31,747 nt of DNA from Gemmatimonadota bacterium (lineage in GTDB: Bacteria; Gemmatimonadota; Gemmatimonadetes; Gemmatimonadales; GWC2-71-9). Where the stretch lies: NCBI GenBank assembly GCA_029859185.1, contig JAOUDR010000001.1, positions 1 through 31,747 on the forward strand, read 5' to 3'. Below are positions 25,360 to 30,966 of the stretch, piece after piece. The position numbers and the translations under genes are program-made. The notes beneath the pieces are model-generated. The model was not told the origin of the DNA and searched no databases. It was given only the letters and a program-made list of their open reading frames with translations. The first letter of the stretch is position 1. Every line of letters starts with the position of its first letter.

Positions 25360-25851
25360 TTACGAATCGCGGTCGGCGTGTGCCGCTCGCACCGCGTCGA
25401 GCAGCCCGATGAGCCGCTGCTGATCACGCTTGGCCAGACCACGCACCGCGGTGTGATCGGCGGCATCCACCGGTTCGTCGAGTCGCTTCATGAGCGCGAG
25501 CCCCTCGGCAGTGATGACGCAGTGGATCTGCCGCCGGTCCGCAGAGGTGCGGCGGCGATGGACCCAACCCCGCACCTCGAGGCGGTCAATCATCCGTGTG
25601 ATCCCCGGGGCGCGCTGCACCATGCGTTCGGCCACCTCGAGCGTGGGCAGCCCACTCGGCCCGGCCCCACGGAGGATGCGCAGCACGTTGTACTGCTGAA
25701 GGGTCACCCCCTCCCGCTCCACGACTTCACCGTAATACCGCCGGACCAGGTCCGCGGTCCGGAATAGGGCAACCACCGCCTCCTGCCCGATGGACTGGAA
25801 CGGGCGGGTCTGGCGGATCTCCTGCTGGATCGCACTGGCGCGTCGTGTCAT
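25360..25851 (-). CDS. MarR family transcriptional regulator
   Basis: GVTLQQYNVLRILRGA, PGITRMIDRLEVRGWV.R...DRR...ITAEG. Confidence 0.93.
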   Translation of the reverse strand: MTRRASAIQQEIRQTRPFQSIGQEAVVALFRTADLVRRYYGEVVEREGVTLQQYNVLRILRGAGPSGLPTLEVAERMVQRAPGITRMIDRLEVRGWVHRRRTSADRRQIHCVITAEGLALMKRLDEPVDAADHTAVRGLAKRDQQRLIGLLDAVRAAHADRDS

Positions 25852-25873
25852 GGCGTGATAGGATTAATGGACA

Positions 25874-25893
25874 ATAGTTGACATGTCAAGCAT
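25874..25893. promoter_or_regulatory. Palindromic operator ATAGTTGACATGTCAAGCAT with TTGACA on both strands
   Basis: Perfect 12-bp core TTGACATGTCAA at 25878-25889 in an AT-rich patch upstream of marR and of the divergent cytochrome gene. Confidence 0.75.
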
Positions 25894-25996
25894 TTGTCGG
25901 GAACCTCCGGCAACACCGGACGCGCTGATTCGGTCCGGTACAGCCCGCTGGAAGATCCCGTGCCGCCATCCTGCACCTCAGCCCCAGGAGAACGAC

Positions 25997-26446
25997 ATGC
26001 AACCACGCCTCGTGCTCACACTCGCCCTGAGCTGCTTGCTCACGGCCTGTCCCGGAGACGGAACGGGCCTGGACGAGAACGGCAACCCCCTGGGCCCACC
26101 TGGACCCGACGAGGGTGTGACCCTCTCCAGTGACGTGCAGCCGATCTTCACGGCGAGCTGCGCGTTTACCGATTGCCATGCCGGCAACAACCCGGTGCTG
26201 GGTCAGAACCTCTCCGCCGGCCAGGCGTACGGGAGCATCGTGAACGTCAACTCTCAGGAAGTCCCCGCCCTCAAGCGCGTGCTGCCGCTCTTCCCAGACT
26301 CCAGCTACCTCGTGCACAAGATCCAAGGAACCCAGGGTTCCGTGGGAGGACTGGGGGGGCGCATGCCGCTCGGTGGCGCCGCGCTCACTGACGAAGAGAT
26401 CGCCACTATCCGGGCATGGATCACGGCCGGTGCTCCAAACAACTGA
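25997..26446 (+). CDS. Putative monoheme c-type cytochrome lipoprotein with CX4CH motif (planctomycete cytochrome C-like domain)
   Basis: AGGAG RBS; lipobox LTA/C18; DVQPIF..SCAFTDCH; PDSSYLVHKI; candidate distal ligand RMP; LTDEEIATIRAWITAGA. Confidence 0.8.
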   Translation: MQPRLVLTLALSCLLTACPGDGTGLDENGNPLGPPGPDEGVTLSSDVQPIFTASCAFTDCHAGNNPVLGQNLSAGQAYGSIVNVNSQEVPALKRVLPLFPDSSYLVHKIQGTQGSVGGLGGRMPLGGAALTDEEIATIRAWITAGAPNN

Positions 26447-26457
26447 CGGAGGTCACG

Positions 26458-27519
26458 ATGCGAACGCTGCTGCTTCCCCTCGGCCTCCTGGTCGCCACCA
26501 CCCCCGCGGCCGCCGAGCCGTACCTGGCACTCCGGACCGGGCTCAAATGCTCGTCATGTCACACGAACCTGACGGGCGGTGGGAACCGCAACACCTACGG
26601 TGGCATTTTCTCGCAGACGCAGCTGCCAATGAGGCCCGGCACGGTCGTCAGCAAGAACGTCACGGATTTCCTCCAGATCGGCTGGGACCTGCGGGTCGAA
26701 GCGTCGGGGACGTTCAAGGCGTCCACGCCACGCACCAGCATCGGACTCGACGTCGCGCAGCTGTACGCCGCCGCCGAGCTGCTGGAGAACCGGCTGGTGC
26801 TCTACATCGACCAGACGGTCGGTCCGGACCGCGCCGTCGCGCGCGAGGCCTTCGGCATGGTGAAGCGCCTCCCTGGGGAGGGCTACATCAAGGCCGGGAA
26901 GTTCCTGCTCCCCTACGGCCTCCGATTACAGGATGATGCCGAGTACATCCGCGAACGAACGGGATTCTCTTACAAGACACCGGATCAAGGCGTCGAGGTT
27001 GGACTCGAGCCGGGTCCGCTGGCGATCGCCGTCGCCCTGACCAACGGCAGCACGGGTGCCGTCGAGAACGACAACGGCAAGCAGGTCACCTCGAGCGCCG
27101 CCGTGGTCTTCCGTCAGTTCCGGCTCGGGGCCTCGGCCTCGCGCAACGACGGAACGGATCAACGCCGGGAAGTCGTGGGCGGCTTCGGCGGCTTCAACGT
27201 CGGCCCACTGGTCCTCATGGGAGAGCTGGACTACGTGCGGGACAAGCCCGTGCAGGGTGACACGGTACGCCAACTCATGGCCTACGGTGAGGCGGACTGG
27301 TTGCTCATACGCGGGCTCAACGCCAAGGTCACGTACGGGTGGCTCGACCCCAACATGGACGTCGCCGAAAACGAGCGGATTCGCGCCCGGTTCGGGCTCG
27401 AGTTCTTCCCGACTCCGTTCCTGCGGTTCGCGGGCTTCTACGGCCTGTTCAAGGACATCCCGCAGGCGACGACAACCAACCTGGACCGTTGGAGCGTCGA
27501 GGCGCACGTGTTGTTCTGA
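26458..27519 (+). CDS. Outer-membrane beta-barrel with an N-terminal CXXCH heme motif (cytochrome-porin fusion, Cyc2-like)
   Basis: GGAGG RBS; signal peptide PAAA/E; EPYLALRTGLKCSSCH (motif at 26548-26562); amphipathic beta-strand patterns; terminal Phe (SVEAHVLF). Confidence 0.82.
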   Translation: MRTLLLPLGLLVATTPAAAEPYLALRTGLKCSSCHTNLTGGGNRNTYGGIFSQTQLPMRPGTVVSKNVTDFLQIGWDLRVEASGTFKASTPRTSIGLDVAQLYAAAELLENRLVLYIDQTVGPDRAVAREAFGMVKRLPGEGYIKAGKFLLPYGLRLQDDAEYIRERTGFSYKTPDQGVEVGLEPGPLAIAVALTNGSTGAVENDNGKQVTSSAAVVFRQFRLGASASRNDGTDQRREVVGGFGGFNVGPLVLMGELDYVRDKPVQGDTVRQLMAYGEADWLLIRGLNAKVTYGWLDPNMDVAENERIRARFGLEFFPTPFLRFAGFYGLFKDIPQATTTNLDRWSVEAHVLF

Positions 27520-29008: not shown

Positions 29009-29977
29009 ATGTCGCTGCCCATCGCGCTGCTGTTCGTGTTGGCTGGGATCGGCCTGTTGGCCGGCGGCGGTGAGGCGTTGGTCCGCGGCGCGGTGTCACT
29101 GGCCCGTCGGCTGCGCGTGAGCACGGTCGTCATCGGCTTGACGATCGTGGCAATGGGTACGTCCGCCCCGGAGCTGGCGGCAAGCCTGACTGCGGCGCTC
29201 CACGGCCGCGGCGACATCGCGGTCGGCAACGTCGTCGGCTCCAACATCCTCAACATCGCGATGATCGTGGGCATGTCGGCGGTGCTGCTACCCATCACCG
29301 TCCACCTGTCCGCCATCCGGGTCGAGTGGCCGGTGATGCTCGCGCTGTCGGTGGCGGTGGTCGCCATGGCGCAGAATGGGATCATCAGTCGCGCCGAGGG
29401 AATCGGGCTCGTTCTCACGTTGATGGGCTTCATCGTGTACCTGATCGTGAGCGCCGAGCGCCCGGCGAGCGCCCGTGACCGGCCGTCGATCGAGATCGAG
29501 GTGGACTCGCTCACCGTTCGTGCCGCCCGTTACCAGGGCTTCATCGACGTGGGGCTGATTCTGTTTGGCGTGGCCATGCTGGTCGGCGGTGCCCAGGCGC
29601 TGGTCCGCGGCGCGGTCGTGCTGGCCGAATTCGCGGGCCTGTCCGAACGCGTCATCGGCCTCACGGTCGTGGCGTTCGGCACGAGCCTGCCGGAACTCGC
29701 GACCAGCCTGGTCGCCGCGCGCCGTGGACAGGCCGAAATTGCGCTCGCCAACGTGATCGGCTCAAACATCTTCAACCTCACGGCCATCCTCGGCACCGTG
29801 GCTATCGTGACGCCGCAGAGCGTACCACGGGAGACCATCACGCTCGATTTCTGGTGGATGCTTGCCTATGCGGTCGTCCTGCTGCCAATGATGCGAGTGG
29901 GCATGCGCATCACGCGGGTCGAGGGCGCCGCACTGCTTGCCAGTTACGGCGTCTACCTGTTCTTCCTGCTCCGCTAG
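29009..29977 (+). CDS. Calcium/sodium:proton antiporter (CaCA, YrbG-like), copy 1
   Basis: Alpha repeats GTSAPEL...GNVVGSNILN and GTSLPEL...ANVIGSNIFN. Confidence 0.95.
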   Translation: MSLPIALLFVLAGIGLLAGGGEALVRGAVSLARRLRVSTVVIGLTIVAMGTSAPELAASLTAALHGRGDIAVGNVVGSNILNIAMIVGMSAVLLPITVHLSAIRVEWPVMLALSVAVVAMAQNGIISRAEGIGLVLTLMGFIVYLIVSAERPASARDRPSIEIEVDSLTVRAARYQGFIDVGLILFGVAMLVGGAQALVRGAVVLAEFAGLSERVIGLTVVAFGTSLPELATSLVAARRGQAEIALANVIGSNIFNLTAILGTVAIVTPQSVPRETITLDFWWMLAYAVVLLPMMRVGMRITRVEGAALLASYGVYLFFLLR

Positions 29978-30003
29978 ACTGGACCAACCCGAGGATCCCC
30001 GCG

Positions 30004-30966
30004 ATTTCCCCACTCGTCGCCCTCGCCCTGGTCGTCGTCGGGATCGCCGCCCTGGCTGCCGGCGGGGAGTTGCTGGTTCGCGGTGCCGTTTCGCTGGCCC
30101 GCGCCCTCCGCGTGAGCACCGCCGTCATCGGACTGACGGTGGTGGCGGCGGGGACCTCGATGCCCGAGCTGGCCGTGAGCCTGTTCGCCTCCCTCCAAGG
30201 AAAGGCGGACATCGCGGTCGGCAACGTCGTGGGGTCCAACATCTTCAACGTCGCCGCCATCCTCGGCATCGCGGCGCTGCTCGCCCCAATGGTCGTGCAC
30301 CTGACCGCGGTGCGGCTGGAGTGGCCGGTCATGGCCATCGTCTCGGTCGGGTTCCTCCTGCTCGCGCGGGACGGCATCATCGATCGCCTCGAGGGCGGTG
30401 TGCTCCTCGTCGTGCTGATCGGGTTCACCACCTACATGATCCGGCTGGCCCGACGGCACACCACGCCGGAGGACGCGGCGGCGTTCGCCACGAGCGTGGA
30501 CGGATGGACGGGACAGGGACGCCGCCTGGCCGTGGACCTGGGGCTCGTGGCGGGTGGCGTGATCCTGCTGGTGGGTGGCGCGCAGGTGCTGGTGCGCGGC
30601 GCGGCGACGCTTGCGACGGCGGCGGGCCTGTCGGAGCGGGTGGTCGGGCTCACGATCGTCGCGGCCGGAACCTCGATGCCGGAGCTCGCCGCCTCGCTCG
30701 TGGCTGCGCGGCGCAAGCAGGCCGGGATCGCGCTCGCCAACGTCATCGGCTCGAACATCTTCAACCTCGCCGGCATTCTGGGCCTGGTCTCGGTCGTCAC
30801 GCCGCAACGCGTGAATTCCGCCATCATCCACAGCGACAACTGGTGGATGGTCGGCTTTGCCATCGTGCTGTTCCCCATCATCCGCTCCGGCATGCGCATC
30901 GGCCGCGGAGAGGGCGCCGTGCTGTTGGCGGCCTACGGTGTGTACCTCGCGCTGCTGCTGCGATAG
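30004..30966 (+). CDS. Calcium/sodium:proton antiporter (CaCA, YrbG-like), copy 2, probable ATT start
   Basis: GTSMPEL...GNVVGSNIFN and GTSMPEL...ANVIGSNIFN; N-terminus colinear with copy 1 from ATT 30004; GAGGA 8 nt upstream. Confidence 0.9.
   Translation: MSPLVALALVVVGIAALAAGGELLVRGAVSLARALRVSTAVIGLTVVAAGTSMPELAVSLFASLQGKADIAVGNVVGSNIFNVAAILGIAALLAPMVVHLTAVRLEWPVMAIVSVGFLLLARDGIIDRLEGGVLLVVLIGFTTYMIRLARRHTTPEDAAAFATSVDGWTGQGRRLAVDLGLVAGGVILLVGGAQVLVRGAATLATAAGLSERVVGLTIVAAGTSMPELAASLVAARRKQAGIALANVIGSNIFNLAGILGLVSVVTPQRVNSAIIHSDNWWMVGFAIVLFPIIRSGMRIGRGEGAVLLAAYGVYLALLLR

Follow-up and report, generated by a model that had tools for sequence, protein, structure and literature searches.

A candidate two-haem outer-membrane electron conduit formed by a cytochrome lipoprotein and a Cyc2-related cytochrome-porin in Gemmatimonadota

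We analysed a 31,747-nt stretch of a Gemmatimonadota bacterium genome (assembly GCA_029859185.1, contig JAOUDR010000001.1, positions 1 to 31,747; hereafter the window), focusing on two adjacent plus-strand genes, A and B, each encoding a cell-envelope protein with a single haem motif. Gene A (25997..26446) is predicted from its motifs, homologues and structural model to encode a 149-residue monohaem c-type cytochrome lipoprotein that is PSCyt1-like and adopts a class-I-like fold. Gene B (26458..27519) encodes a 353-residue protein that its motifs, family, model and profile homology identify as a monohaem cytochrome fused to a porin, belonging to a compact family that is sister to Cyc2. An AGGAG ribosome-binding site (RBS; 25986..25990) lies 7 nt ahead of the gene A ATG, and the 11-nt gap following the gene A TGA contains a GGAGG RBS for gene B (26448..26452) on the same strand. 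This layout agrees with the original prediction, made from the nucleotide sequence, of two tightly linked genes separated by 11 nt and including a dedicated RBS. As argued below, the pair probably constitutes a two-haem outer-membrane (OM) electron conduit.

A predicted cytochrome lipoprotein with an expanded haem motif

The gene A product begins with a type II signal peptide and lipobox (25997..26050), reading MQPRLVLTLALSCLLTA-C18 with the lipobox as LLTA-C18, and C18 is invariant among 115 close homologues. Just past the lipidated Cys lies a conserved N-terminal tether motif, G-x-G-L-D-x-N-G-x-P (G22–P31; 26060..26089); in A-type partners from other phyla the lipobox Cys sits 3–7 residues ahead of it. 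We can only guess at its role, which may be docking to gene B or Ca2+ binding. The haem attachment site, C55-AFTD-C60-H61 (26159..26179), is a CX4CH motif that does not match the canonical CXXCH, and it recurs in 117 of 120 close homologues. Further downstream, conservation and alignment with cytochrome c6 mark M123 within M123-P124 (26363..26368) as the probable distal haem ligand.

Close homologues retain C18, C55, C60, H61 and M123-P124, and the haem-associated residues persist across a set of 82 A-type domains from many phyla, in which C55 is found in 76, C60 in 78, H61 in 78, M123 in 80 and P124 in 81. K108 and W141 are likewise conserved (76–81 of 82 for all seven positions), and H107 is not. 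Because M123 is conserved and H107 is not, the haem of gene A is likely ligated by His61 and Met123. The spacing between the two Cys residues varies among orthologues: most Proteobacteria have 2 residues there, a few loci have 3, and Gemmatimonadota together with some scattered lineages have 4, but CXXCH, CX3CH and CX4CH all occupy one alignment position and the CH remains fixed. Variation of this kind is compatible with a haem c site and would be unusual in a structural disulfide, and it makes the A-type partners a natural series of the three motifs at one orthologous position.

These patterns bear directly on the possibility that the Cys-His motifs bind no haem and instead form disulfides or metal sites, leaving an ordinary porin and an ordinary lipoprotein. 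The non-canonical CX4CH of gene A would suit that explanation, as would the absence, for both proteins, of any Pfam cytochrome hit at gathering threshold. We nevertheless consider it very improbable: a His follows the second Cys in 78 of 82 A domains, alongside the Met-Pro motif; the spacing varies between 2, 3 and 4 around a fixed CH, as in known haem c sites; the genome carries cytochrome c maturation (Ccm) genes; and the gene B module is homologous to the Cyc2 haem module, on which covalent haem has been demonstrated experimentally (PMC8406198).

The structural model of gene A is helical, with a predicted local distance difference test (pLDDT) score of 84. Its top Foldseek match is hydrazine synthase alpha (5c2v_A; E 1.5e-3, 26–28% identity), and a profile search retrieved the C-terminal cytochrome-like domain of the same protein (residues 638–766; E 5e-4), placing 'CAlsgCH' of gene A on the 'CAM--CH' (CXXCH) site. 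The C-terminal part of gene A aligns to the G-x-M-P (GAMP) Met-ligand stretch of cytochrome c6, and an Atlas feature search positioned gene A beside PSCyt1 (PF07635) clusters (0.94). Against Pfam, gene A matched no cytochrome family at gathering score; Cytochrome_CBB3 reached 16.8 bits against a cut-off of 27, and PSCyt1 was unmatched. Neither gene A nor gene B scored above threshold for any family in Pfam or NCBIfam. Kinship of gene A with FoxE (PDB 5mab) was considered and rejected, the matches being insignificant (Foldseek E 0.57, profile E 0.44); FoxE, the iron oxidase of Rhodobacter ferrooxidans SW2, is a c-type cytochrome of the periplasm with a suggested role in Fe(II) oxidation. The lipid-anchored protein with one haem-type motif that had been proposed is thus recovered, through its lipobox C18 and CX4CH, in the refined form of a PSCyt1-like, probably His/Met-ligated cytochrome c. 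In some lineages, duplication has given rise to di- or trihaem A-type partners, and much longer partners of 400–680 residues (L063, L073, L095, L103, L104, L044) contain two to four copies of the haem motif or of the A domain.

Gene B and its relation to Cyc2

Gene B starts with a type I signal peptide (26458..26514), identified by eye from the sequence as MRTLLLPLGLLVATTPAAA followed by EP, with predicted cleavage between AAA and the nearly invariant E20-P21. The N-terminal haem module extends from E20 to about P60 (26515..26637), as delimited by conservation, pLDDT of at least 95 and homology to the Cyc2 module. It contains the haem motif C31-SS-C34-H35 (26548–26562) at mature residues 12–16, within the family signature E-P-Y-L-A-x-R-x-G-x-K-C-x-x-C-H-x-N-x-T-G-G-G-x-R, in which E20, P21, G28, C31, C34, H35, N37, G40–42 and R44 are invariant or at least 90% conserved. 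Residues 72–353 (26671..27516) are modelled as a 16-stranded β-barrel that closes with a β-signal ending in AHVLF; x-H-x-F-F forms the C-terminal end of most of 116 full-length relatives. The AlphaFold2 model (mean pLDDT 93.6, predicted template modelling score 0.88) places two short helices (21–27 and 46–54) ahead of the 16 strands, and Foldseek matched it to OmpT, chitoporin, PorB, OprP and OprO at E 1e-12 to 1e-10 (OprP 2o4v_A, E 1.4e-11; OprO 4rjw, E 3.2e-10). The matching AlphaFold DB clusters bear the names 'porin' and 'cytochrome c domain-containing protein', and the sole Pfam hit is Porin_4 (E 2e-4), below its gathering cut-off. The earlier description of gene B as an OM barrel with one haem motif at its mature N-terminus therefore holds.

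An exhaustive HMMER search recovered 1081 representatives of 50%-identity clusters at E ≤1e-3, 172 of them at E ≤1e-30. Gene B is, on sequence grounds, not an isolated novelty but a member of a large sister family of Cyc2 that lacks a Pfam or NCBIfam model. A single CXXCH within residues 7–59 (nearly all within 23–59) is present in 113 of the 116 full-length relatives, which extend to about 30% identity; of the three exceptions, two have a second CXXCH and one has none. Conservation of the Cys and His residues, on which the initial proposal depended, is accordingly high in both families, the C-H pair of gene A being found in 78 of 82 A domains. Two short Burkholderiales open reading frames (ORFs) of 125 and 162 residues, L149 (G474:C188:2802-2990) and L150 (G392:C57:1341-1535), match the gene B N-terminal module with E of 4e-10 and 2e-9; each has a TGA inside the module match and may be a broken or truncated gene B copy.

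Published criteria define Cyc2 by a signal peptide, one CXXCH, an upstream AXPXFAR[Q/K][T/Y], a downstream PXL, a 16-strand OprO/P-like barrel and a length of at least 365 residues (Keffer et al., PMC8406198). Gene B shares the N-terminal signal peptide, the single N-terminal CXXCH and the 16-strand OprO/OprP-like body. It departs from the upstream motif, reading A-E-P-Y-L-A-L-R-T, in which A, P, A, T and the spacing match while F is replaced by L, R by L and Q/K by R; the family consensus at this position is AEPYLAVRxG. The PXL expected about four residues past CXXCH is likewise absent, and gene B instead has H-T-N-L-T-G-G-G-N-R, with N37, G40–42 and R44 invariant or nearly so. Its 353 residues also fall short of the 365. 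Because the FAR motif, PXL and length all differ, we do not file gene B as Cyc2 in the published sense and assign it to a separate, compact sister family.

Homology between the two families was examined with a canonical Cyc2-type set, recognised by its signature and drawn by a B-family profile search from 301 genomes of the order to which a Rhodoferax carrier belongs. The profile retrieved one true B together with the first ~40 residues of 420–550-residue ORFs in about 80 genomes, with per-genome E from 1e-3 to 6e-8. A relaxed regular expression recovered 23 of these ORFs with [AS]-x-P-x-[FY]-[AS]-[RE]-[RQ]-[TY]-G-x-x-C-x-x-C-H, most reading A-[VI]-P-x-F-A-R-Q-T-G, and nearly all have P-x-L 2–6 residues past CXXCH; by this N-terminal motif and P-x-L, most of the 23 fit the canonical Cyc2 signature. 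The corresponding stretch of gene B, A-E-P-Y-L-A-L-R-T-G-L-K-C-S-S-C-H, has identical spacing. Profile–profile alignment (hhalign) of the gene B family with the canonical set gave a probability of 97% and E 8e-11 over 121 columns covering the haem module and first strands, and the reverse search with the canonical profile found gene B at E 1.1e-4. Signature spacing, profile–profile alignment and reverse search together indicate that the haem module of gene B is homologous to the Cyc2 module, attached to a body of the same predicted fold, which supports the comparison with Cyc2 drawn in the original prediction. By analogy with models of Cyc2 and from the high pLDDT, the module probably packs against or inside the barrel.

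Pairing, distribution and genomic context

Of 301 sampled Gemmatimonadota genomes, a set whose tallies include one unpublished genome (G157) on which no individual claim depends, 26 carry gene B, at 27 loci in all. At 23 of these loci the gene directly preceding B on its strand is gene A, one of them being a distant locus whose B is 39% identical; of the other four, one is cut by a contig end, one has B at the contig start (G235) and two have different upstream genes (G070 and G090). We then scanned species-representative genomes with a degenerate DNA signature of the gene B N-terminus, which matched at least 120 of them. The cross-phylum counts given here refer to 80 loci among the matches listed, from Gamma- and Betaproteobacteria, Binatia, Latescibacterota, Acidobacteriota, Myxococcota, Bacteroidota, Fibrobacteria and Gemmatimonadota; the proteobacterial carriers include Steroidobacteraceae, Cellvibrionaceae, Nevskia, Psychrosphaera, Roseateles (with the isolate R. 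agri R3-3) and Rhodoferax. An A-type gene lies directly upstream at 58 of the 74 loci that have at least 600 nt of upstream sequence, spanning about ten phyla, so the two genes are co-conserved both within Gemmatimonadota and beyond. At the remaining 16, mostly in Binatia and Latescibacterota, no neighbouring CXXCH gene was found either.

No third gene is common to more than about 15 of the 80 loci across phyla. In many genomes of the window's family (L006–L022, e.g. L016:7642-13090) the pair is followed by a block encoding an aldehyde dehydrogenase (~542 residues), two Pfam-less proteins (~420–580 and ~425 residues) and a PD40/TolB-like protein, interrupted at three loci by a PAS histidine kinase. 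This block was rejected as part of the module, being absent from the window, its genus and distant loci. In a sister species of the same genus (G059), two lipoprotein genes flank A–B divergently (L005:7212-9026 and L005:9064-9402, both +), each product ending in the type-1 copper (cupredoxin) signature H-N...Y-x-C-S-I-H-G-x-P-x-x-G-M, an arrangement that resembles rusticyanin beside cyc2. As a general feature of the pair, cupredoxin linkage was discarded, none being present at about 100 other loci.

The window holds no ccm or ccs maturation genes, as had been remarked before. Elsewhere the genome encodes the System I components CcmF and CcmE (contig C202) and CcmC (C201), providing the maturation machinery that had been proposed as a check; ResB was not found in this 82%-complete assembly. 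The same genome (G000) also encodes a canonical Cyc2-type protein of 399 residues (AIPAFARKYGVSCRLCH..PKL, ending in GVTAAF; L178:1483-2682, +), preceded by a histidine kinase gene and followed by a gene for a 132-residue monohaem cytochrome c (CSACH ... PMPAKGG; L178:2763-3161, +), the Cyc2-type and cytochrome genes together occupying about 8.7–10.4 kb on contig C239. Canonical-type Cyc2 genes occur in 126 of the 301 Gemmatimonadota genomes, consistent with previous FeGenie-based reports of Cyc2 in this phylum (PMC9769843, PMC11316326), as against only 26 for gene B. In one Gemmatimonadota genome (G086:C81:567-7278), a canonical-type Cyc2 match in a 581-residue ORF lies about 4.7 kb from A–B on the same contig and strand.

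Metagenomes from marine, estuarine and aquatic sediments contain nearly identical DNA. In four RNA libraries, contigs match segments of gene A over 161–174 nt with 0–1 mismatch and segments of gene B over 160 nt without mismatch, or over ~640 nt for a related strain.

Upstream of the pair, the divergent neighbours encode a MarR regulator (25360-25851, −; Pfam E 1e-10) and a DoxX membrane protein; downstream lies a convergent M20 peptidase gene, and the rest of the window consists of housekeeping genes and many peptidase genes. Just past the M20 gene, tandem genes of the Na+/Ca2+ exchanger family (322 and ~370 residues, as overlapping ORFs) occupy 29009-30966 of the window. The 145-nt region separating the MarR gene from gene A contains a palindrome (25873..25894) with 11-nt arms, AATAGTTGACA and TGTCAAGCATT, that are 82% complementary, and a core of TTGACATGTCAA; it overlaps a −35-like TTGACA and may serve as an operator for MarR or as part of a promoter region, and any connection with the pair is uncertain. 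No such palindrome was found upstream of the pair at the other fetched loci, and a promoter and terminator scan returned nothing. MarR and DoxX were also rejected as conserved neighbours of the pair, since they do not recur across loci.

These surroundings, together with features of the barrel, raise the question of whether gene B is instead a porin whose haem senses, gates or catalyses, for example in a peroxidase- or detoxification-type reaction on a pore solute, with gene A as redox partner or regulator. The gene B alignments show no evident conserved sixth haem ligand, which suits a five-coordinate, ligand-binding haem, and the barrel carries many conserved charged residues (R79, D118, R129, E130, K145, R156, D159, R165, E180, E256, E278 and R309). 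Solo gene B loci exist, and genes for MarR and DoxX adjoin the pair in the window. Genuine Cyc2 oxidases modelled with AlphaFold 3, however, likewise have the proximal His as the sole haem ligand (PMC13741234), the tight pairing with an electron-carrier-type His/Met cytochrome points to electron transfer, and MarR and DoxX are not conserved neighbours, leaving this explanation improbable. Of the two functions initially put forward, a minimal conduit or a redox-gated channel, the conduit is supported by the haem residues, the pairing, the Ccm genes and the Cyc2 homology; the gated channel gained no specific support.

Proposed electron flow and comparison with known conduits

The favoured reading is therefore a two-haem conduit across the OM, for which we propose the following scheme. 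Genes A and B would form an operon for a minimal two-haem conduit. The gene B product would be exported by Sec, receive one covalent haem from Ccm at C31/C34/H35 and fold into the 16-strand porin. The gene A product, tethered through C18 probably to the inner leaflet of the OM, would act as a His61/Met123 class-I-like cytochrome c with haem at CX4CH. By analogy with transfer from Cyc2 to Cyc1 or rusticyanin, the gene B haem would accept single electrons from a small soluble donor arriving through the pore, with Fe(II) as the prime candidate in marine and estuarine sediments, and electrons would pass from gene B to gene A, then to periplasmic carriers and on to a terminal oxidase or reductase.

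As to direction, our first choice is inward flow from Fe(II), favoured by the analogy with Cyc2 and Cyc1 and by the probable high-potential His/Met partner. The architecture is symmetric, so sequence does not fix the direction. Respiratory electrons might instead exit by way of A and B and reduce an acceptor outside the cell or within reach of the pore, for instance chelated Fe(III), Mn(III/IV), humics or O2-derived species, or the route might serve to dissipate excess reductant. Such outward flow would suit carriers that are sediment heterotrophs. His/Met ligation, probable in gene A through M123, is nevertheless typical of high-potential carriers feeding oxidases, and known outward conduits rely on multihaem chains. 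Annotation cannot assign the Cyc2 homologues of marine Gemmatimonadota to oxidation or reduction (PMC11316326), yet the characterised fused cytochrome-porins, Cyc2 and Cyt572, are all oxidases (PMC8406198, PMC13741234). On balance we regard outward flow as unlikely.

Several observations weigh against an inward two-haem conduit. The A–B carriers are heterotrophs, and we know of none that oxidises iron. Haem attachment by Ccm at a CX4CH site has its precedent in other proteins, as in Desulfovibrio cytochrome c3; a literature search on CXXXXCH maturation yielded nothing usable. About one-fifth of B loci are solo (16 of 74, as well as G070 and G090), which implies that B can function in the absence of A, or with a partner encoded elsewhere. 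The genome already carries a canonical Cyc2-type gene, so gene B may do something else, and its alignments offer no conserved distal ligand. The RNA-library contigs are strandless and may derive from contaminating DNA, making them weak evidence of expression of A and B. Finally, gene B departs from three published Cyc2 criteria (PMC8406198), so that Cyc2 function is not simply transferable to it.

The two-haem conduit still appears to us the most probable account, and it carries consequences for genome-based inference. Cyc2 is the main genetic marker for inferring microbial iron oxidation from genomes and metagenomes, and the gene B family, its sister, comprises at least 1000 clusters at 50% identity in about ten phyla, outside Pfam, NCBIfam and the published Cyc2 filters. 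If this family moves electrons across the OM, surveys that look for extracellular electron transfer or cryptic iron cycling in soils and sediments miss a whole class of carriers, many of them common heterotrophs. The pair would also offer a very small study system for OM electron transfer, with two haems and ~500 residues in total. A broader proposal, which we advance tentatively and with less than even confidence, is that the pair represents a widespread and unrecognised OM 'electron porin' system, apart from canonical Cyc2 and missed by current marker-gene tools. Fe(II) or other small redox-active solutes could then be oxidised by ordinary heterotrophs of the Gemmatimonadota, Steroidobacteraceae, Roseateles, Cellvibrionaceae, Acidobacteriota, Myxococcota and further groups, with GxGLDxNGxP docking gene A into gene B and wiring the two haems.

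Gene A finds its best match, over ~130 columns, in PSCyt1 (PF07635) and the C-terminal domain of hydrazine synthase alpha, with which it has in common an 'IF..C..CH' start and a 'P...L..E...I..WI..GA' end. Gene A differs in its two-residue insertion (CX4CH) and Met-Pro motif, and in being a stand-alone lipoprotein with the GxGLDxNGxP tether that falls below every Pfam threshold.

The nearest known counterparts of gene B are the Cyc2 cytochrome-porins (clusters 1–3 of McAllister 2020 and Keffer 2021), such as Acidithiobacillus ferrooxidans Cyc2, Mariprofundus Cyc2PV-1 and Leptospirillum Cyt572. In both groups a signal peptide precedes a mature chain whose only CXXCH follows after a few residues and whose body is a 16-strand barrel resembling OprO/OprP, and the N-termini conform to A-x-P-x-hydrophobic-A-x-[R/Q]-T-G-x-x-C-x-x-C-H with identical spacing. 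They differ in that L-A-L-R replaces F-A-R-Q/K, an invariant N-x-T-G-G-G-x-R follows the haem motif in place of PXL, and the gene B family is mostly 345–415 residues long, as against at least 365 and mostly at least 400 for Cyc2. With these differences, the published Cyc2 pipeline and FeGenie would reject gene B (PMC8406198). Past the first strands, the barrels cannot be aligned by local profile alignment. Gene B is also usually partnered by an upstream PSCyt1-like lipoprotein gene, whereas canonical Cyc2 genes had no such A-type neighbour at the loci inspected, several having a different cytochrome gene downstream. A literature search combining 'Cyc2-like' with 'lipoprotein' and 'porin' found no paper.

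The pair resembles cyc2-cyc1 of the rus operon, where an OM monohaem cytochrome-porin gene adjoins that of a periplasmic c-type cytochrome presumed to take its electrons (PMC13741234). The rus partner is, however, a downstream-encoded Cyc1, soluble or membrane-anchored, whereas gene A lies upstream and encodes a lipid-anchored PSCyt1-like protein that is monohaem, with two or three domains sometimes in other phyla; unlike the rus operon, the A–B operon lacks oxidase and cupredoxin genes. With MtrAB, MtoAB and PioAB the pair shares an OM barrel and a periplasmic-side cytochrome encoded by adjacent genes and, as we infer for A–B, transmembrane electron movement. In those systems a decahaem cytochrome threads a haem-free 26-strand barrel (PMC13741234); A–B, with one haem motif per protein and a 16-strand barrel, falls outside that group and would instead represent a minimal, Cyc2-related arrangement.

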